Virus record (IMG/VR): IMGVR_UViG_2740892119_000002
Strand: one strand, 5' to 3'
Source of the DNA: a virus
Taxonomy: Duplodnaviria; Heunggongvirae; Uroviricota; Caudoviricetes
DNA length: 64,000 nucleotides
In this document: in pieces, positions 1-28,598 of the stretch
Layout of the letters: every line of letters starts with the position of its first letter
How positions within the stretch are numbered: the stretch's first letter is position 1
Position numbers and translations under genes: made by a program
The notes under the pieces: model-generated
The model's database searches: none
What the model was told of the DNA's origin: nothing
The model's input: only the letters and a program-made list of their open reading frames with translations

Positions 1-84
1 CCGTTGGAGGTGTGGCTGATGGCCATGGAACAGGTACACCAACGGGCAGCGCCGAGCCTTCTCCTAAACCAACGTTTTTATGCC
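1..84 (-). repeat. Conserved 5' segment of a second tail-fibre variable cassette, truncated by the window edge
   Basis: About 88% identical over ~80 bp to 488..566 in the same orientation; an extra T relative to copy B creates the stop of the 78..554 cassette and changes the frame. Confidence 0.5.
59..84. other. Candidate cix/hix-type crossover site A (26 bp, AA core)
   Basis: TTCTCCTAAACC-AA-CGTTTTTATGCC resembles the Hin-family site TTCTTGAAAACCAAGGTTTTTGATAA (recalled); lies at the cassette boundary. Confidence 0.45.
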
Positions 85-554
85 GCCCTTACGATGTAAT
101 TAAATGCGATATTTCGTGGACGGGTTTCACTCCCGCCAGTATTACCAATACTCCCTCGAGAATGAAGTGTCGGTGATGGAATCAAATTCCCTCCTGTATT
201 TGAGGCATCAAGCCCCCGTCCTTGTGTGTATGTTTTTTTGAAAATTGTCGCCAGCTCCCATTCATCTTTTGTGTCGTAACCATCATTGGCTACAACAATA
301 TGTCGGTGCTTTTCCAGCATTCCTGTCTGAATGCTCAATAAAGCACGTCCCGCATCCACCCCGCGCCCATCATCCCAGCCGCGAATAAATTCTCCCCGTA
401 AATCCGGTAATTTATTGGTGGGATAAGCCTTTGCCAGATTTGGGTACTTTTCAGAAGAAAATGCTGCACCATTGCATTTCAGCCACCCCGTTGGTGGTGT
501 GGCTGAGGGCCACGGAACAGGGACACCAACAGGCAATGCAGAGCCTTCCCCCAA
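78..554 (-). CDS. Tail-fibre C-terminal variable cassette (Sv'-type, no independent start)
   Basis: 158-codon ORF beginning at a crossover-like site right next to cin, with an in-frame stop just upstream; track start is a TTG; silent-orientation cassette as in Mu/P1 invertible segments. Confidence 0.65.
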   Translation of the reverse strand: MGEGSALPVGVPVPWPSATPPTGWLKCNGAAFSSEKYPNLAKAYPTNKLPDLRGEFIRGWDDGRGVDAGRALLSIQTGMLEKHRHIVVANDGYDTKDEWELATIFKKTYTQGRGLDASNTGGNLIPSPTLHSRGSIGNTGGSETRPRNIAFNYIVRAA

Positions 555-571
555 ACCAACGTTTTAGTCTT
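546..571. other. Candidate cix/hix-type crossover site B
   Basis: TTCCCCCAAACC-AA-CGTTTTAGTCTT; same codon phase through the AA core as site A; about 45 bp from the cin start. Confidence 0.45.
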
Positions 572-625
572 AATCCCTACCTATACCAACGATGTATTTT
601 TAACTAAACAAAGAGGTTGTTTTTC

Positions 626-1198
626 ATGCAAATTGGCTACATTCGTGTGTCAACAAATGACCAAAACACAGATTTACAAAGAAATGCACTGAACTGCGCA
701 GGATGTGAACTGATTTTTGAAGATAAAATAAGCGGAACAAAGTCAGCCAGACCAGGCTTGAAAAAGCTGCTCAGAACGTTATCAGAAGGAGATACGCTGG
801 TTGTCTGGAAGCTGGATAGGCTTGGCAGAAGTATGAAACACCTTATCACGCTTATAGAGGAGTTGCGGGAAAAAGGTGTTAATTTCCGTAGTCTGACAGA
901 CAGTATTGACACATCAACACCCATGGGGCGTTTCTTTTTTCACGTCATGGGGGCTTTAGCAGAAATGGAACGTGAATTAATTGTTGAGAGAACACTGGCC
1001 GGACTGGCAGCTGCACGCGAACAGGGACGCATTGGCGGACGTCGCCCGAAGTTGACAAAAGAACAACATGAGCAAATAGCGAGGTTGATCGAAAATGGCT
1101 ACAGCAGGAAACAGTTGGCAATTATTTACGATATCGGTGTATCGACGATTTATCGTTATCATCCTGTAGAGAAGCGCCAAACTCAATCTGAGCTGTAA
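626..1198 (+). CDS. cin: Serine DNA invertase (Cin/Hin/Gin/Min family)
   Basis: MQIGYIRVSTNDQ...VVWKLDRLGRS...MGRFFFHVMGALAEMERELI; AAGAGG SD 9 nt before the ATG at 626; track start 617 is a TTG. Confidence 0.95.
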   Translation: MQIGYIRVSTNDQNTDLQRNALNCAGCELIFEDKISGTKSARPGLKKLLRTLSEGDTLVVWKLDRLGRSMKHLITLIEELREKGVNFRSLTDSIDTSTPMGRFFFHVMGALAEMERELIVERTLAGLAAAREQGRIGGRRPKLTKEQHEQIARLIENGYSRKQLAIIYDIGVSTIYRYHPVEKRQTQSEL

Positions 1199-1633
1199 TT
1201 CTAATGCCGCGTCGGTGTAATTTATCTTGATAGAATAGGTACATTTATCGCGCGGCACATCAATTCGATGTATCTAGCGCCTGCTGGCCGCTAATGAAAA
1301 CTGTTCTCGAAATGTTGTCCCTAGTCCGAGACTAGGGTATCACCTCTGGAAAGCATACGCAGAACCTTTTTTAACCCAGGGTGCCCAGCTTTTTTGCTGC
1401 TCGCCTTATTCGCAAAAATTAGCTCACATCCTGCGCTTTCAAGTGCTTTTCACTGCATAGCTGTGTTTTGTTCATTTGTCTATATGCGTACATAGCCTAT
1501 TAGCATATTTTCTGCCCACTATCGTTATTTATTGCAAGCTACAGGTTTTAATTAACAAAACCAGTGTGTGTGGAAATCACAAAGTGCATACCGTTCTCAA
1601 ATGTTGTTCAACTTACTGTTGTATAGGTAAAAA

Positions 1634-5625: not shown

Positions 5626-8613
5626 ATGAGCTTAAGCGATCAGGTGGTAATGGCCACCAGCATAGAAACGCTGATCGAGCTGCTAAAGAACCTGCCCGAT
5701 TATGGGCGGGTTTCGTATGTGGTGACAGCGAAGGGAGACGAGGTAAAAACAGCGTTTGATATCGTCGATGCCTCAGCTCTTTTGGTATCCAATACTCTGG
5801 ATGGGAAAATTAATCCTGACTATCCCCAGGAACTTCAGCCGCGCGACCGGACCCGCGCATCCAGCCTTCTTCAGGTTAACCAGATATCCAAAGATTTGCG
5901 GCCAGCTCAGCTTACTGATTCCGGTTTATCCAGCCATGGTGCGCCAATAATTGGTGAGGACAATGCCGTTGAGTCAGGTAATGGGCGGACCATGGGGATC
6001 ATTAAAGCCTATCAGGACGGTAATGCGGATCGGTATCGGGAGTACCTGATTGAACATGCGACCGAATTCGGCATACGGCCTGAAAAGGTTGAATCAATGA
6101 CGGCTCCGGTACTGGTGCGCCGCCGGTTAACGAAGGTTGACCGTGTTCAGTTTGCCAAGGACTCAAATATTTCTGATCTCCAGGAAATGGCAGCCAGTGA
6201 AAAGGCTTTTGTTGATGCCGACAGCATAACACCGGCGATGATGGCGTTGTTTAACCCGTCAGAAAGTGGAGATCTGCTTAGCCGCAGTAATGACGCGTTT
6301 ATTCGCGGATTTATGACGCAAGTTGGTGCCACACAGGCGGCTGGCCTTGTAACTGAAGATGGGCGACCAACACGGCAACTTGTAGACCGTATACAAAACG
6401 CGATCTTTGCCAAGGCATATAAGGATGCGCGCCTGGTAAGGATGGTTGCAGAAGAACCTGATCCGGATATGCGTAATGTTCTGACGGCGCTTAATGCGGC
6501 AGCCAATGATTTTGTCCAGATGCAGGCTTTATCAGGAGAAGCGCACAAGCAGGCTGTGACAACTATTGTTGATGGCATTGAGACAGCGGATAGCCTCGAT
6601 AAAAAGGCGCTGGCGGCATTGAAAGATGCGGTAGACCTGGTAAGGCAATCGAAGGAGTCAGGCCAGCATATTACCGATGTTATTGCTCAGGGGGATATGT
6701 TCAGCGAAACGGCCCCGGAAGTGAAAGCACTCGCGTTGTTCATCGTCGCGAATAACCGTAGCGCGAAGCGTATGGCCACCGCCTTTAAGTTGATGGCTCA
6801 ACGTATCAATGATGAGTTACAGCACCAGGGCCAGGCGCTGGGGGATATGTTTGGCGGCGGCGATGTGTCGTTACAGGATATCCTTCGCCAGGTGTCTCAG
6901 GAACTGGAAAACGAAGGCATGCAAGGGATATCCGGCGGTCTTTTCGAGTCCGTTTCCGGCGGTAGTTACAACGGTGTTGCTCCGTATACCAGTTTGCTAT
7001 TACATCGGGCATCCGGCATCAAAGACATTATTCATCTGATCAGGCTGCTTTCCCGCACAGATCCCCAGGATGAACAGCTTGTACAAGTGCTTGCGCATTT
7101 TGTTCGAATGCCTGTTGCCGACGTGAAAAAATGGTGCCGATTATTCGGTATCAGCAATTCGTTACTTCGCGGCTTGTTAAATCACGCATCCTCCCTTGGG
7201 CGCGATGGCTTTGACGAGATAGCGCAGGCGATAAAAAACGGAGATATGCCACCAGCTATTGACTGGTTTTCCATTCGCCCAACCAGGGTGAAAGCATTCC
7301 TTAGCGCGGCGCATTCGGCATCACCATTGGCAGAAATGGTTCAGAGGTTGTCGCTCATATTCACAGACCATACCGCGTTGGGTGATCTGACTCTGGACGA
7401 GATGAAAGAAGCCTCCATTCAGTGGGCCGATCAACAAAATGAGGTTAACTCAGACTTCTTGCCAGCATTCAGGAAGGCCGTTAGTAAAGCGGATGATGCC
7501 CGTGGAATTCTGAAGGCATTTAAGGCATTGCAAAGTCGTGTTAATAAACATGTCGGTGATATCGATGGGGTAACGGCGGAAGGCCGGGATATTCTTAAAG
7601 AGCACGGCATAACGCCAGAGTTTATTGATGAGATCAGGACTGATATGCAGCGTGAGGTCGTATCGTCCCTGCAAATCGTAGCCAGAGCGTTGGCGGATGC
7701 TAATCCGAAGAGTGCGGCCATTGTTAACCGGGTTATTGGTGATATTGAAGCATCGGAGGGCATGGGGGCGCTGAAACTCTTCCTTTCGCGAGCGTTTAAT
7801 CCTAACGGCAATATTCTCCCTGGCATTATTGGTGAGGCTAAAAAGTATGTCAGTGAAGAAGAACTTGAGCAGCTTGACCAACTACTTAAGCGATTCTCAT
7901 ATAACCCGCAGATACGCTGGCAAATGAATCAGCGAAGTATGGGTTCGGTCCACGAGAAAGTGTTATCTGCCATGAACAGTGCGATCGCAAACTCATCCGT
8001 ATCTGAAGAAAAAGCTCTTGAGTGGGCCGACTCTTTTATCACAGAAGAAGTGGAAGAAGTCCGCGCTGGACAGAATGGTGGGATAGACCTGCGCAAGGAA
8101 CTTGCTGATATTTATCGCCTGACCGGCGGGAAAATATCGACCTTATCAAAGGTAGTTCACCACCAGGGAAGGGCATATGCAAATCTTAATGGTGTTGTTG
8201 CTGTCAATTTGAACGATGAAAATGCAAGTGCACTGTGGCACGAGCTGGGTCATCATCTTGAGTACAGTAACCCTGGTTTGTTAGAGAAAGCCCGGTCATT
8301 CCTGAAGGCCAATGTTGAAGGGGATAAGCCATCTTTCGTCAATATCGGTGGGCGTGGCAAGCCTGAATGGTGCTTCAGATCTCGATTGAGTAATATTTAT
8401 ATGGCGAAGGTATACCCGCCAGCCTCAGTAAGTAACACCGGGAAAATTCGGCAGAAATCACCGACTATTTCCAAAACGTCAGCAACGGAAGTATTCTCTA
8501 TGGCTCTTCAGTTGTATCATGACAAAGAGGCCGCTGCCGCATCACTGATGAATGGTGACGGATTGCTGGAACTGTTATTAGGTGTGGCAAAGGAGCTAAA
8601 TAATGCAGATTAA
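5626..8613 (+). CDS. ddrB: DdrB-like large Dar-system protein
   Basis: 995 aa; position after ddrA as in the P1 darA operon. Confidence 0.75.
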   Translation: MSLSDQVVMATSIETLIELLKNLPDYGRVSYVVTAKGDEVKTAFDIVDASALLVSNTLDGKINPDYPQELQPRDRTRASSLLQVNQISKDLRPAQLTDSGLSSHGAPIIGEDNAVESGNGRTMGIIKAYQDGNADRYREYLIEHATEFGIRPEKVESMTAPVLVRRRLTKVDRVQFAKDSNISDLQEMAASEKAFVDADSITPAMMALFNPSESGDLLSRSNDAFIRGFMTQVGATQAAGLVTEDGRPTRQLVDRIQNAIFAKAYKDARLVRMVAEEPDPDMRNVLTALNAAANDFVQMQALSGEAHKQAVTTIVDGIETADSLDKKALAALKDAVDLVRQSKESGQHITDVIAQGDMFSETAPEVKALALFIVANNRSAKRMATAFKLMAQRINDELQHQGQALGDMFGGGDVSLQDILRQVSQELENEGMQGISGGLFESVSGGSYNGVAPYTSLLLHRASGIKDIIHLIRLLSRTDPQDEQLVQVLAHFVRMPVADVKKWCRLFGISNSLLRGLLNHASSLGRDGFDEIAQAIKNGDMPPAIDWFSIRPTRVKAFLSAAHSASPLAEMVQRLSLIFTDHTALGDLTLDEMKEASIQWADQQNEVNSDFLPAFRKAVSKADDARGILKAFKALQSRVNKHVGDIDGVTAEGRDILKEHGITPEFIDEIRTDMQREVVSSLQIVARALADANPKSAAIVNRVIGDIEASEGMGALKLFLSRAFNPNGNILPGIIGEAKKYVSEEELEQLDQLLKRFSYNPQIRWQMNQRSMGSVHEKVLSAMNSAIANSSVSEEKALEWADSFITEEVEEVRAGQNGGIDLRKELADIYRLTGGKISTLSKVVHHQGRAYANLNGVVAVNLNDENASALWHELGHHLEYSNPGLLEKARSFLKANVEGDKPSFVNIGGRGKPEWCFRSRLSNIYMAKVYPPASVSNTGKIRQKSPTISKTSATEVFSMALQLYHDKEAAAASLMNGDGLLELLLGVAKELNNAD

Positions 8614-25561: not shown

Positions 25562-26593
25562 CTAATCGCCATCTTCCAGCAGGCGCACCATTGCCCCCGT
25601 TTCACTATCCAGGTTACGAATGTAGTTCATGACAATATTTACGTTGGTCCAGCCACCAGCTTGCATGATCTCCGGTATTGAAACTCCGGCGCGGGCCATA
25701 TCTCGCGCGGCTCCGACACGGGCACTGTGTCCAGACCAGGCCAGGTACCTCTGGCCAGAGTCATCCTTAGCCCCGTAAATCAATCGGTGAGTTGCTTCAA
25801 AAATCCCTTCCAGGGCGCGAGTTGATAGCTGGCTGGTGGCAGATGGCGCGGCAACACCATTTTTTCTGACACGGCAAAACAAGTAGTTATTCGGATCATC
25901 AGCCACACCAGAGACAGAAATCCATCGCTCAACCAGTTTAGTTACCCCCAGACTAAGTGCCTTCTCTACACCAGCGGTGCTAACCAGCGTTTTCGTTCTG
26001 CCAATATGGATTAACATTCTCCCACCGTCAGTACGTGAGATATCTTTAACTCTGATCCTAGAAATTTCGGCTATACGTAACAGGGTGTTATAAGCAATCC
26101 CCAGAAATGCCAGATTACGTATATCCTGGCAGCGATCGCTATTTTCCATGAGTGAACGAACCTGGTCGAAATCAGTGCGTTCGAACGCCAGCGCCTGTTT
26201 TGCACGCTCACCGGCATCAACGTTTTCTTTTCGGATCCGTCGCATGACCAGTGAAACAGCATTGCTGTCACTTGGTCGTGGCAGCCCGGACCGACGATGA
26301 AGCATATTTAGCTGGCCCAAATGTTGCTGGATAGTTTTCACTGCCAGACCGCGCGCCTGAAGATATAGAAGATAATCGCGAACATCTTCAGGTTCTGCGG
26401 GAAACCATTTCCGGTTATTCAACTTGCACCATGCCGCCCACGATCGGCAAACGGACAGAAGCATTTTCCAGGTATGCTCAGAAAACGCCTGGCGATCCCT
26501 GAACATGTCCATCAGGTTCTTGCGAACCTCATCACTCGTTGCATCGACCGGTAATGCAGGCAAATTTTGGTGTACGGTCAGTAAATTGGACAT
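25562..26593 (-). CDS. cre: Cre site-specific tyrosine recombinase
   Basis: 343 aa beginning MSNLLTVHQNLPALPVDATSDEVRKNLMDMFRDRQAFSEHTWKMLLSVCRSWAAWC; matches Cre as recalled. Confidence 0.98.
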   Translation of the reverse strand: MSNLLTVHQNLPALPVDATSDEVRKNLMDMFRDRQAFSEHTWKMLLSVCRSWAAWCKLNNRKWFPAEPEDVRDYLLYLQARGLAVKTIQQHLGQLNMLHRRSGLPRPSDSNAVSLVMRRIRKENVDAGERAKQALAFERTDFDQVRSLMENSDRCQDIRNLAFLGIAYNTLLRIAEISRIRVKDISRTDGGRMLIHIGRTKTLVSTAGVEKALSLGVTKLVERWISVSGVADDPNNYLFCRVRKNGVAAPSATSQLSTRALEGIFEATHRLIYGAKDDSGQRYLAWSGHSARVGAARDMARAGVSIPEIMQAGGWTNVNIVMNYIRNLDSETGAMVRLLEDGD

Positions 26594-27746: not shown

Positions 27747-28598
27747 ATGATAAATTATGTCTACGGCGAACAACTGTACCAGGAGTTCGTCAGCTTCAGG
27801 GATCTCTTTCTAAAAAAAGCTGTTGCACGCGCCCAACACGTTGATGCCGCCAGCGACGGTCGTCCTGTTCGCCCGGTTGTCGTTCTGCCGTTCAAAGAAA
27901 CGGACAGCATTCAGGCTGAAATTGATAAATGGACTTTAATGGCGCGGGAACTGGAACAGTATCCAGACCTCAATATCCCAAAGACTATTTTATATCCAGT
28001 GCCTAACATCCTTCGCGGTGTGCGTAAGGTTACAACTTATCAGACAGAAGCTGTGAACAGCGTCAACATGACCGCTGGCCGCATTATTCATCTGATTGAT
28101 AAGGACATTCGCATCCAGAAAAGCGCGGGGATCAATGAGCACAGTGCGAAATACATAGAGAACCTGGAAGCAACAAAAGAGCTAATGAAGCAGTACCCGG
28201 AGGATGAAAAATTCCGTATGCGTGTACACGGCTTTAGCGAAACAATGCTGCGCGTCCATTACATTTCCAGTAGCCCTAACTACAATGATGGTAAATCAGT
28301 TAGTTACCATGTGCCGCTGTGTGGTGTGTTTATCTGCGATGAAACTCTCCGTGATGGAATCATCATCAACGGTGAATTCGAGAAAGCAAAATTTAGCCTT
28401 TATGACTCTATAGAACCGATCATCTGCGACCGCTGGCCGCAGGCAAAAATATATCGCCTGGCAGATATTGAAAATGTAAAAAAACAAATTGCCATCACTC
28501 GCGAAGAGAAAAAGGTCAAATCAGCCGCATCAGTTACGCGCAGCCGTAAAACTAAGAAGGGGCAGCCAGTAAACGACAACCCCGAAAGCGCGCAATAG
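27747..28598 (+). CDS. c1: C1 repressor of lysis
   Basis: 283 aa, MINYVYGEQLYQEFVSFRDLF...; matches P1 C1 as recalled. Confidence 0.95.
   Translation: MINYVYGEQLYQEFVSFRDLFLKKAVARAQHVDAASDGRPVRPVVVLPFKETDSIQAEIDKWTLMARELEQYPDLNIPKTILYPVPNILRGVRKVTTYQTEAVNSVNMTAGRIIHLIDKDIRIQKSAGINEHSAKYIENLEATKELMKQYPEDEKFRMRVHGFSETMLRVHYISSSPNYNDGKSVSYHVPLCGVFICDETLRDGIIINGEFEKAKFSLYDSIEPIICDRWPQAKIYRLADIENVKKQIAITREEKKVKSAASVTRSRKTKKGQPVNDNPESAQ

Follow-up and report, generated by a model that had tools for sequence, protein, structure and literature searches.

The window, by which the whole analysed stretch of 64,000 nucleotides is meant, comes from a virus of the Caudoviricetes (IMG/VR record IMGVR_UViG_2740892119_000002). 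At its left end, short tail fibre coding segments with repeated crossover-like sites lie next to a gene for a Cin-like DNA invertase. The question that this locus raises is whether it is part of a two-state switch, such as those of P1 and Mu, or one end of a system in which several tail fibre cassettes can be exchanged. The systems of the Hin/Gin/Cin family, to which both the Gin system with the G-segment of Mu and the Cin system with the C-segment of P1 belong, operate by a common mechanism. Dimers of the invertase at inverted sites act together with a Fis-bound enhancer on supercoiled DNA. The sites are cut with a 2-nt stagger at the core, rotated and religated, and the reaction is limited to inversion by the asymmetry of the core and by topology. 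The Min shufflon is a textbook example of multiple DNA inversion. It was reportedly described around 1990 on p15B of E. coli 15T- by Iida, Sandmeier and Arber in work spanning 1990-1992 (GenBank X62121).

The analysis leads us to conclude, with high confidence, that a Min-type region of multiple DNA inversion on a P1-like phage-plasmid has its invertase-proximal end at positions 1-1506 of the window. The system is the known Min shufflon of p15B; it is real but ordinary.

Crossover sites

A repeat search of the window identified a direct repeat between positions 1-78 and 488-565, in which 68 of 78 bases are identical (87%). At least 68 matches in 78 are expected by chance with a probability of about 1e-30 per pair, or about 1e-21 to 3e-21 across all pairs in the window. 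The original prediction had put the identity of 1-57 and 488-544 at about 88%; the repeat is real and in the same codon phase, but the measured value for this part is slightly lower, 49/57 or 86%. The same prediction had placed a hix/cix-like site of 26 bp at 59-84 and another at 546-571. Both are found there, in direct orientation and with AA cores (71-72 and 558-559, respectively), at a spacing of 487 bp. They have 19 of 26 bases in common, and both contain AAACC-AA-CGTTT. The site at 59-84 is an internal crossover site of the mix type with a 12-2-12 layout, one half of which supplies the stop codon of the preceding cassette. The site at 546-571 is the terminal crossover site of the invertible region. 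Its outer half (the reverse complement of AAGACTAAAACG) is fixed beside the invertase gene, and is kept at the invertase-proximal end in 18 of 18 related loci whose sequence reaches this far.

On the coding strand of the cassettes, the terminal site reads AAGACTAAAACG-TT-GGTTTGGGGGAA and the internal site GGCATAAAAACG-TT-GGTTTAGGAGAA. All internal sites of the related loci fall into the class GGCATAAAAACG-TT-GGTTTRGGRGAA, the same as that of the site at 59-84. The cixR site of P1, on the coding strand of S, is TTATCCAATACC-TT-GGTTTAAGAGAA. The window sites align base for base with cixL and cixR of P1, and share with them the half-site GGTTTRGGRGAA and the TT/AA core. The internal half-sites are less palindromic, at 5-6 of 12 positions, than those of cix, at 8 of 12. 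The well-conserved half-site is the one that moves with the head of the cassette, and the other half comes from the upstream DNA. The 12-mer AAACC-AA-CGTTT occurs twice in the window against an expectation of 0.43, and two or more occurrences were obtained in 6 of 100 shuffles; taken alone in the window it is weak evidence for a site. The same 12-mer occurs 16 times in the related locus L003 (NZ_CP135665.1), where 0.17 are expected.

A degenerate third copy of the site (CCTATACCAACGATGTATTTTTAA; 75% identity, repeat family D2) is located at 580-603, between the terminal site and the start codon of the invertase gene. It is 30 nt away from the terminal site and has the same orientation. This copy is conserved in L003 as well, and has a half-site similar to those of the Din type. 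This element may be a quasi-site or, alternatively, a binding site with a role in regulation or autoregulation.

It could be argued that the repeat is an artefact of assembly or a chance tandem duplication that plays no role in recombination. Arrays of such cassettes are hard to assemble, and the repeated identical cassettes in L003 are suspicious in this respect. The two copies in the window, however, differ at 13% of their positions and run on into different sequence, the same architecture is present in many independent assemblies, and the chance probability is of the order of 1e-21. We therefore give this explanation almost no credence.

Tail fibre cassettes in the window

The region between the two sites is a complete, silent tail fibre tip cassette, called here type A (78-557, minus strand), which has 159 codons from the crossover followed by a stop codon. 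The predicted cassette of 158 codons corresponds to an open reading frame that is indeed present (78-554, minus strand; 158 amino acids), but the true frame opens at the crossover, with GGT at 557-555 (GLGEGSALPV...), and is one codon longer; the TTG assigned by the ORF finder is not the true start. The 159 residues start with GLGEGSALPVGVPVPWP and end with RPRNIAFNYIVRAA, and the TAA stop codon (78-80) lies inside the site at 59-84. The reading frame contains a phage tail Collar domain (E = 3e-15), and the cassette matches PHROG tail fibre families with E = 1e-75. Type A is silent in its place because there is an in-frame TAA just upstream of its start. In NZ_CP135665.1, a full-length S protein has an in-frame C-terminus that agrees with type A in 158 of 159 residues, so type A is a tip in use and not debris. 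It encodes an alternative C-terminal receptor-binding tip of the tail fibre protein S.

A second silent cassette begins at the site at 59-84, as had been predicted. Only its truncated 5' head (1-70, minus strand) is present, cut by the edge of the window. It translates as GLGEGSALPVGVPVPWPSATPPT, in the same phase relative to the core as type A, and positions 1-72 are identical (72/72) to the heads of the type D cassettes in L007 and L009. The tail fibre assembly gene follows cassettes of type D, and the match is a hint, though no proof, that the central segment of the array is directly to the left of the window. Of the second cassette the window takes in only 70 nt, and it includes neither the tail genes nor the opposite arm nor the junction site at S. 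As the two visible sites have the same orientation and are on one arm, there must be at least three sites once the junction site of the S gene exists. The outcome that would have spoken against the original prediction, a standard two-site C-segment to the left, is excluded by these two sites. Being direct repeats, they would not be expected to recombine with each other.

The invertase and its probable enhancer

The min gene (626-1198, plus strand) starts 72 bases past the start of the type A cassette and encodes an intact serine DNA invertase of 190 amino acids. It belongs to the Din family, which comprises Hin, Gin, Cin, Pin and Min. A length of about 190 amino acids, a catalytic serine near position 9-10 and a C-terminal helix-turn-helix were used as the criterion for this family. 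The protein has the domain layout of the family, an N-terminal catalytic domain of the resolvase type (Resolvase, PF00239, E = 2e-51) and a C-terminal helix-turn-helix (HTH_7, PF02796, E = 3e-15). Its residues 1-185 can be aligned with Mu Gin (PDB 4m6f) without a gap and with E = 4e-92, the YxRVSTxxQ motif included.

The relationship of the enzyme to Cin is not close. The identity to P1 Cin is 138/190 in a global alignment and 74.2% by tblastn, and the protein is nearer to the invertases of P2-like prophages (83-85% identical). It is the same, at 190 of 190 residues, as WP_001165547.1 in L003, and differs at one position (189/190) from the invertase of plasmid pJIE250-3. The latter has been reported to be 98.5% identical to Min of p15B (X62121), and the tail fibre gene adjoining it 95.2% identical to its p15B counterpart (Venturini et al. 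2019, PMC6906374). By way of this published percentage, the window invertase is assigned as the orthologue of Min; the link to p15B is further based on notes in the GenBank record of P1. In a search of a large protein database the enzyme was named only "recombinase family protein" and never "Min"; a protein of exactly this sequence is recorded in 14,962 blocks of public assemblies. A promoter scan found no sigma-70 consensus promoter for min.

A putative recombinational enhancer (Fis-binding, sis-type) is located at 644-715 on the plus strand, in the 5' end of min. It is identical to the annotated enhancer of P1 cin in 58 of 72 bases (80.6%) and occupies the same codon positions. One match to the Fis consensus, at 696-710, is common to the window and the P1 cin enhancer and has the same position in both. 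According to a note in the GenBank record of P1, the equivalent stretch of p15B is 83% identical. The stretch at 644-715 probably acts as an enhancer.

The P1 backbone and the remnant of cin

The min gene is followed by the scar of a replacement. Positions 1330-1506 (minus strand) correspond to the first 177 bp of a cin gene of the P1 type, which has decayed and breaks off after codon 59. The translation of this pseudo-cin (MLIGYVRI*TNEQNTAMQ*K...) contains in-frame stops, one of which is on the codon of the catalytic serine. An enhancer-like stretch is kept in the fragment, and the locus therefore has two enhancer-like sequences about 750 bp apart. From 1330 to 2400 the window is collinear with P1, on the opposite strand, with an overall identity of 89%; the match starts inside cin, and lydC and lydA follow pseudo-cin in the same order as in P1.

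The GenBank record of P1 gives coordinates for the corresponding features of p15B (X62121): the enhancer at nt 6463-6533, a cin-like sequence at 7147-7408, a lydC-like sequence at 7483-7638 and lydA at 7728-8294. Their counterparts in the window are the probable enhancer at 644-715, the cin-like sequence at about 1334-1596, the lydC-like sequence at about 1671 and lydA at about 1914. All of these are related to the X62121 coordinates by a single constant offset of about 5813-5819, and the window thus has the organisation of p15B.

Further along, the window spans the P1 map from about 32 kb backwards through lox to about 58 kb. It carries cre at 25565-26593 (minus strand) and c1 at 27747-28595 (plus strand), the products of which are 99.7% and 99.6% identical to Cre and C1 of P1. 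The mosaic that had been predicted from a diverged Cin-like protein next to nearly unchanged Cre and C1 is thereby borne out, the identity of the invertase to P1 Cin being 74.2%. The element has a P1-type backbone in which the Min module has replaced most of cin together with the C segment.

These findings bear on the suggestion that the locus is a simple two-site switch of the P1 Cin or Mu Gin type, with two long inverted arms and an accidental or inactive duplicate as the second site. The enzyme family is the same, and one related locus, L019, has two sites only (Sc:D> and end:E<). In the window, however, conserved direct sites 487 bp apart bound a short cassette and the next cassette starts at once. 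The layout is unlike that of the annotated 4.2-kb C segment of P1, with its S/U and S'/U' parts, and the invertase is of the Min type, not Cin. Such a switch is extremely improbable, and the reading as one end of a Min-type array is retained.

Array architecture in related loci

Window positions 1-1300 match 202 plasmid records, and the 88-nt unit of head plus site was found at 972 places in 247 records. The matching records are mostly P1-like plasmids of E. coli, with some from Salmonella, Klebsiella and Shigella, and several copies of the cassette are present in most of the matching plasmid records listed. Cassette heads were mapped in 19 related loci, three of which are cut off or degraded, so that their site counts are lower bounds. 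The number of sites per array ranges from 1 to 17 in these 19 loci, and from 5 to 17 in the relatives whose DNA is 97-98% identical. Near-identical relatives contain whole cassette arrays between the S gene and the same invertase.

The arrays are built on a common plan. A complete array starts with the S gene, which ends in a junction site with the outer half TTCTTGATTACC, and continues with heads pointing away from S. The centre is occupied by a double-headed segment, usually consisting of cassette D, the tail fibre assembly gene and a convergent cassette E. The right end consists of heads pointing the other way, the terminal site with the outer half AAGACTAAAACG, and min. At both boundaries the outer half of the site never varies; it is TTCTT... 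where S joins the array and AAGAC... next to min. All sites on the S side have one orientation and all sites on the min side the other, with no exception in the 19 loci.

At least 13 types of cassette, 143-169 amino acids long, can be distinguished when types are defined at 90% identity. They share about 70 conserved residues at the N-terminus and 14 at the C-terminus, and the middle is variable. Types A, C, D, E, G, H, I, J and K each occur on either arm across the plasmids, and eight types (A, C, D, E, G, I, K and O) are found in the expressed position among the plasmids. The central D-tfa-E segment has one orientation in five loci and the opposite one in five others. This pattern of cassettes and orientations is expected from continual reshuffling by inversion between oppositely oriented sites with exchange exactly at the core; the same cassettes are shuffled at the level of the population. 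The orientations in the 19 loci obey the invariant that inversions spanning the centre, and no others, would produce, and cassettes are found on both arms. This is indirect evidence for an invertase that would promote inversion between inverted sites only.

The number of possible arrangements was derived from the array architecture with a model in which any stretch containing the central segment may reverse. For six sites, the model gives 240 configurations. The p15B papers reportedly describe six mix sites and 240 isomers, the number that the model gives. The minimal inversion distance between the arrays of L008 and L009 is 6; this distance is not informative because all arrangements are reachable.

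A different fate of the array is illustrated by pJIE250-3 (L005), which is 97.8% identical to window positions 1-1300 at the DNA level. Type A is at its terminal site (end:A), the second cassette is truncated, and the genes that come after it are unrelated ones (hokD). Although its right end is the same, this plasmid no longer has the S gene and the tail module, which makes inversion impossible (PMC6906374). The window could likewise be a dead remnant that comprises only the min-proximal end with its direct sites, the S gene and the tail module being deleted and inversion impossible; broken arrays are found in L020 and L025 as well. Against this, the head of the second cassette in the window matches that of pJIE250-3 in 63 of 72 positions but the intact type D heads of L007 and L009 in all 72. 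Furthermore, the invertase is intact and identical to that of plasmids with full arrays, and most of the matching plasmid records listed have several cassette copies. We regard a dead remnant as improbable, though less so than the two explanations discussed above. The Min-like, multi-cassette nature of the locus, predicted in preference to the two-arm arrangement of P1 and Mu, is upheld by the invertase with its 189/190 match to pJIE250-3, by the relatives that bear arrays and by pseudo-cin.

Several individual loci have features of their own. Most arrays have a single tail fibre assembly gene, which is directly behind type D in the central segment (L003, L006, L008, L009, L018, L019, L023, L024, L026 and L027). 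The central segment is found in both orientations, and half of the arrangements therefore place this gene antisense to the S operon. In L010 and L022, whose backbones are D6-like, there are two such genes in convergent orientation. The array of L003 (NZ_CP135665.1, 597-9558) has 17 sites and contains identical cassettes in several copies (A four times, B three times, and C, F and G twice each). These repeats could be a real amplification by unequal recombination or an artefact of long-read assembly of mixed isomers. In L011 (CP083412.1, Salmonella Typhi plasmid ph681355, 5840-8612), ISEcp1-blaCTX-M-15 is inserted in the array between two min-side heads, which places an ESBL gene inside an invertible tail fibre region. 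In L025 (GCA_026624965.1, contig JAPMUC010000003.1, 1-10573), min and P1-type lydC-darA come directly after a P2-like tail and baseplate module. This locus is either a chimeric element or a misassembly.

Proposed mechanism of cassette exchange

The following mechanism is proposed for the complete element. The constant part of S, a late tail fibre gene that would lie to the left of the window, would end at a crossover site. Behind S would follow promoterless cassettes of about 480 bp, each extending from a 26-bp site to a stop codon in the next site. By analogy with the Hin/Gin/Cin family, Min would bind the sites and, together with a Fis-bound enhancer that lies within the 5' part of min itself, pair two inverted ones. 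The enzyme would then cut both sites at the 2-bp core (AA/TT), rotate the ends and religate them, so that the intervening DNA is inverted. Since the sites on the S side and on the min side have opposite orientations, any cassette of the min side, type A of the window among them, can be joined to S in frame (...DYL joined to GLGEG...). The resulting fibre would have a different receptor-binding tip and, presumably, confer a different host range. The dependence on Fis and the enhancer and the cleavage chemistry are carried over from the known members of the family. The effect on host range is inferred, as are the size and the activity of the array in this element, the left part of which is outside the window.

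Relation to other inversion systems

The visible part of the locus and the Min system of p15B have the same essential features. The invertases are essentially identical, the short tail fibre 3' cassettes each start at a crossover site, and the invertase gene is transcribed away from the array. The backbone is of the P1 type, and the truncated cin-like fragment between min and lydC is present in both, with collinear spacing. Nothing essential differs in the visible part. The p15B array reportedly has six sites, whereas in the relatives of the window the number ranges from 1 to 17 and is commonly 5-9, with cassettes that belong to a pool of 13 or more types.

The Cin system of P1 has in common with the window the enzyme family, the 12-2-12 sites, an enhancer (probable in the window) within the 5' part of the invertase gene and the target, which is the C-terminus of the tail fibre protein S. 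P1, however, contains two sites and a single 4.2-kb segment, the arms of which are S/U and S'/U', instead of many cassettes of about 480 bp, and the 3' end of cin abuts the segment, whereas the invertase gene in the window system has the opposite orientation. The locus was accordingly not assigned to the P1 Cin/C-segment class: the invertase is 74% identical to Cin, cin itself is present only as a pseudogene fragment, the sites are in tandem and the cassette is 480 bp long.

The shufflon of the R64 type resembles the Min system in that one constant 5' part is fused to alternative 3' ends and in that only inversions, and no deletions, take place. It differs in having a tyrosine recombinase, Rci, instead of a serine invertase, and asymmetric sfx sites instead of 12-2-12 sites with a 2-bp core; its target is a pilus adhesin (the C-termini of pilV) and not a tail fibre. 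Assignment of the locus to this type was rejected, the adjacent recombinase being a serine invertase and the sites being of the Din type. The two kinds of system meet in L017 (NZ_OP290546.1, IncI-gamma/K1 plasmid pNDM5_LS003, 4665-5680), where a Din-type invertase, identical to that of the window in 160 of 190 residues, is found beside an R64-type shufflon and rci. A mix-like site precedes this invertase with the same 72-nt geometry, and the cassette head (LGEGSALPVGVP) is fused to the 'shufflon protein A' segment of PilV. The fusion is a hybrid, in which the head of a Min-type phage cassette is joined to a segment of a pilus shufflon. It can be compared with the PilV-collar fusion that has been reported (PMC9881135).

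The Rin shufflon of Bifidobacterium prophages also acts on the gene of a phage receptor-binding protein and consists of a serine invertase with several sites, and its authors compare Rin explicitly with Min (Mavrich et al. 2018, PMC6109161). The host phylum, the type of phage, the sequences and the cassette proteins are all unrelated to those described here.

The cassette proteins themselves are related to the tip of the T4 long tail fibre protein gp37 (PDB 2xgf). The N-terminal collar region (E = 3e-17) and the C-terminal NIAFNYIVR align to the two ends of the gp37 fragment, and several cassette types contain motifs similar to the HxH motifs of the gp37 needle. The cassettes are shorter than gp37, their middle part is unrelated and variable, and T4 has no inversion system. 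In the 2xgf structure, the gp37 chain begins and ends at the collar, and its middle part extends to the distal, receptor-binding tip before it returns. Conserved ends and a variable, receptor-contacting middle of the cassettes fit this structure.

Implications

The system in the window is already known as the Min shufflon and is cited as such in the recent literature. It is very common in E. coli, the exact invertase being present in thousands of public E. coli assemblies, and its occurrence here carries little weight as a discovery. The larger arrays and the shared cassette pool of modern plasmids may be under-described, a variation in size and not in kind. Within the library of papers searched, none dealt with larger Min arrays or a shared cassette pool, which is weak evidence.

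In practical terms, the Min region explains the breaks and differences that are seen between assemblies of P1-like phage-plasmids at this place. It also tells annotators that the many short "phage tail protein" reading frames are silent alternative tips of one gene. Further, it pinpoints what presumably determines the host range in a class of elements with resistance genes, and in one relative blaCTX-M-15 is inside the array.

A broader view, which we consider rather doubtful, is that the prototype understates the system and that the Min arrays of present-day P1-like and D6-like phage-plasmids take their receptor-binding cassettes from a common, open pool of at least 13. They would commonly have 5-9 sites, and possibly up to 17, compared with six in p15B, exchange cassettes between replicons via the conserved ends, and mostly have one assembly chaperone gene, antisense to the S operon in half of the isomers; the PilV hybrid of the IncI plasmid would be part of the same picture. 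If this were true and undescribed, the host-range repertoire of these elements would be far larger and more exchangeable than the two states of P1, which would matter for the spread of resistance genes by phage-plasmids.
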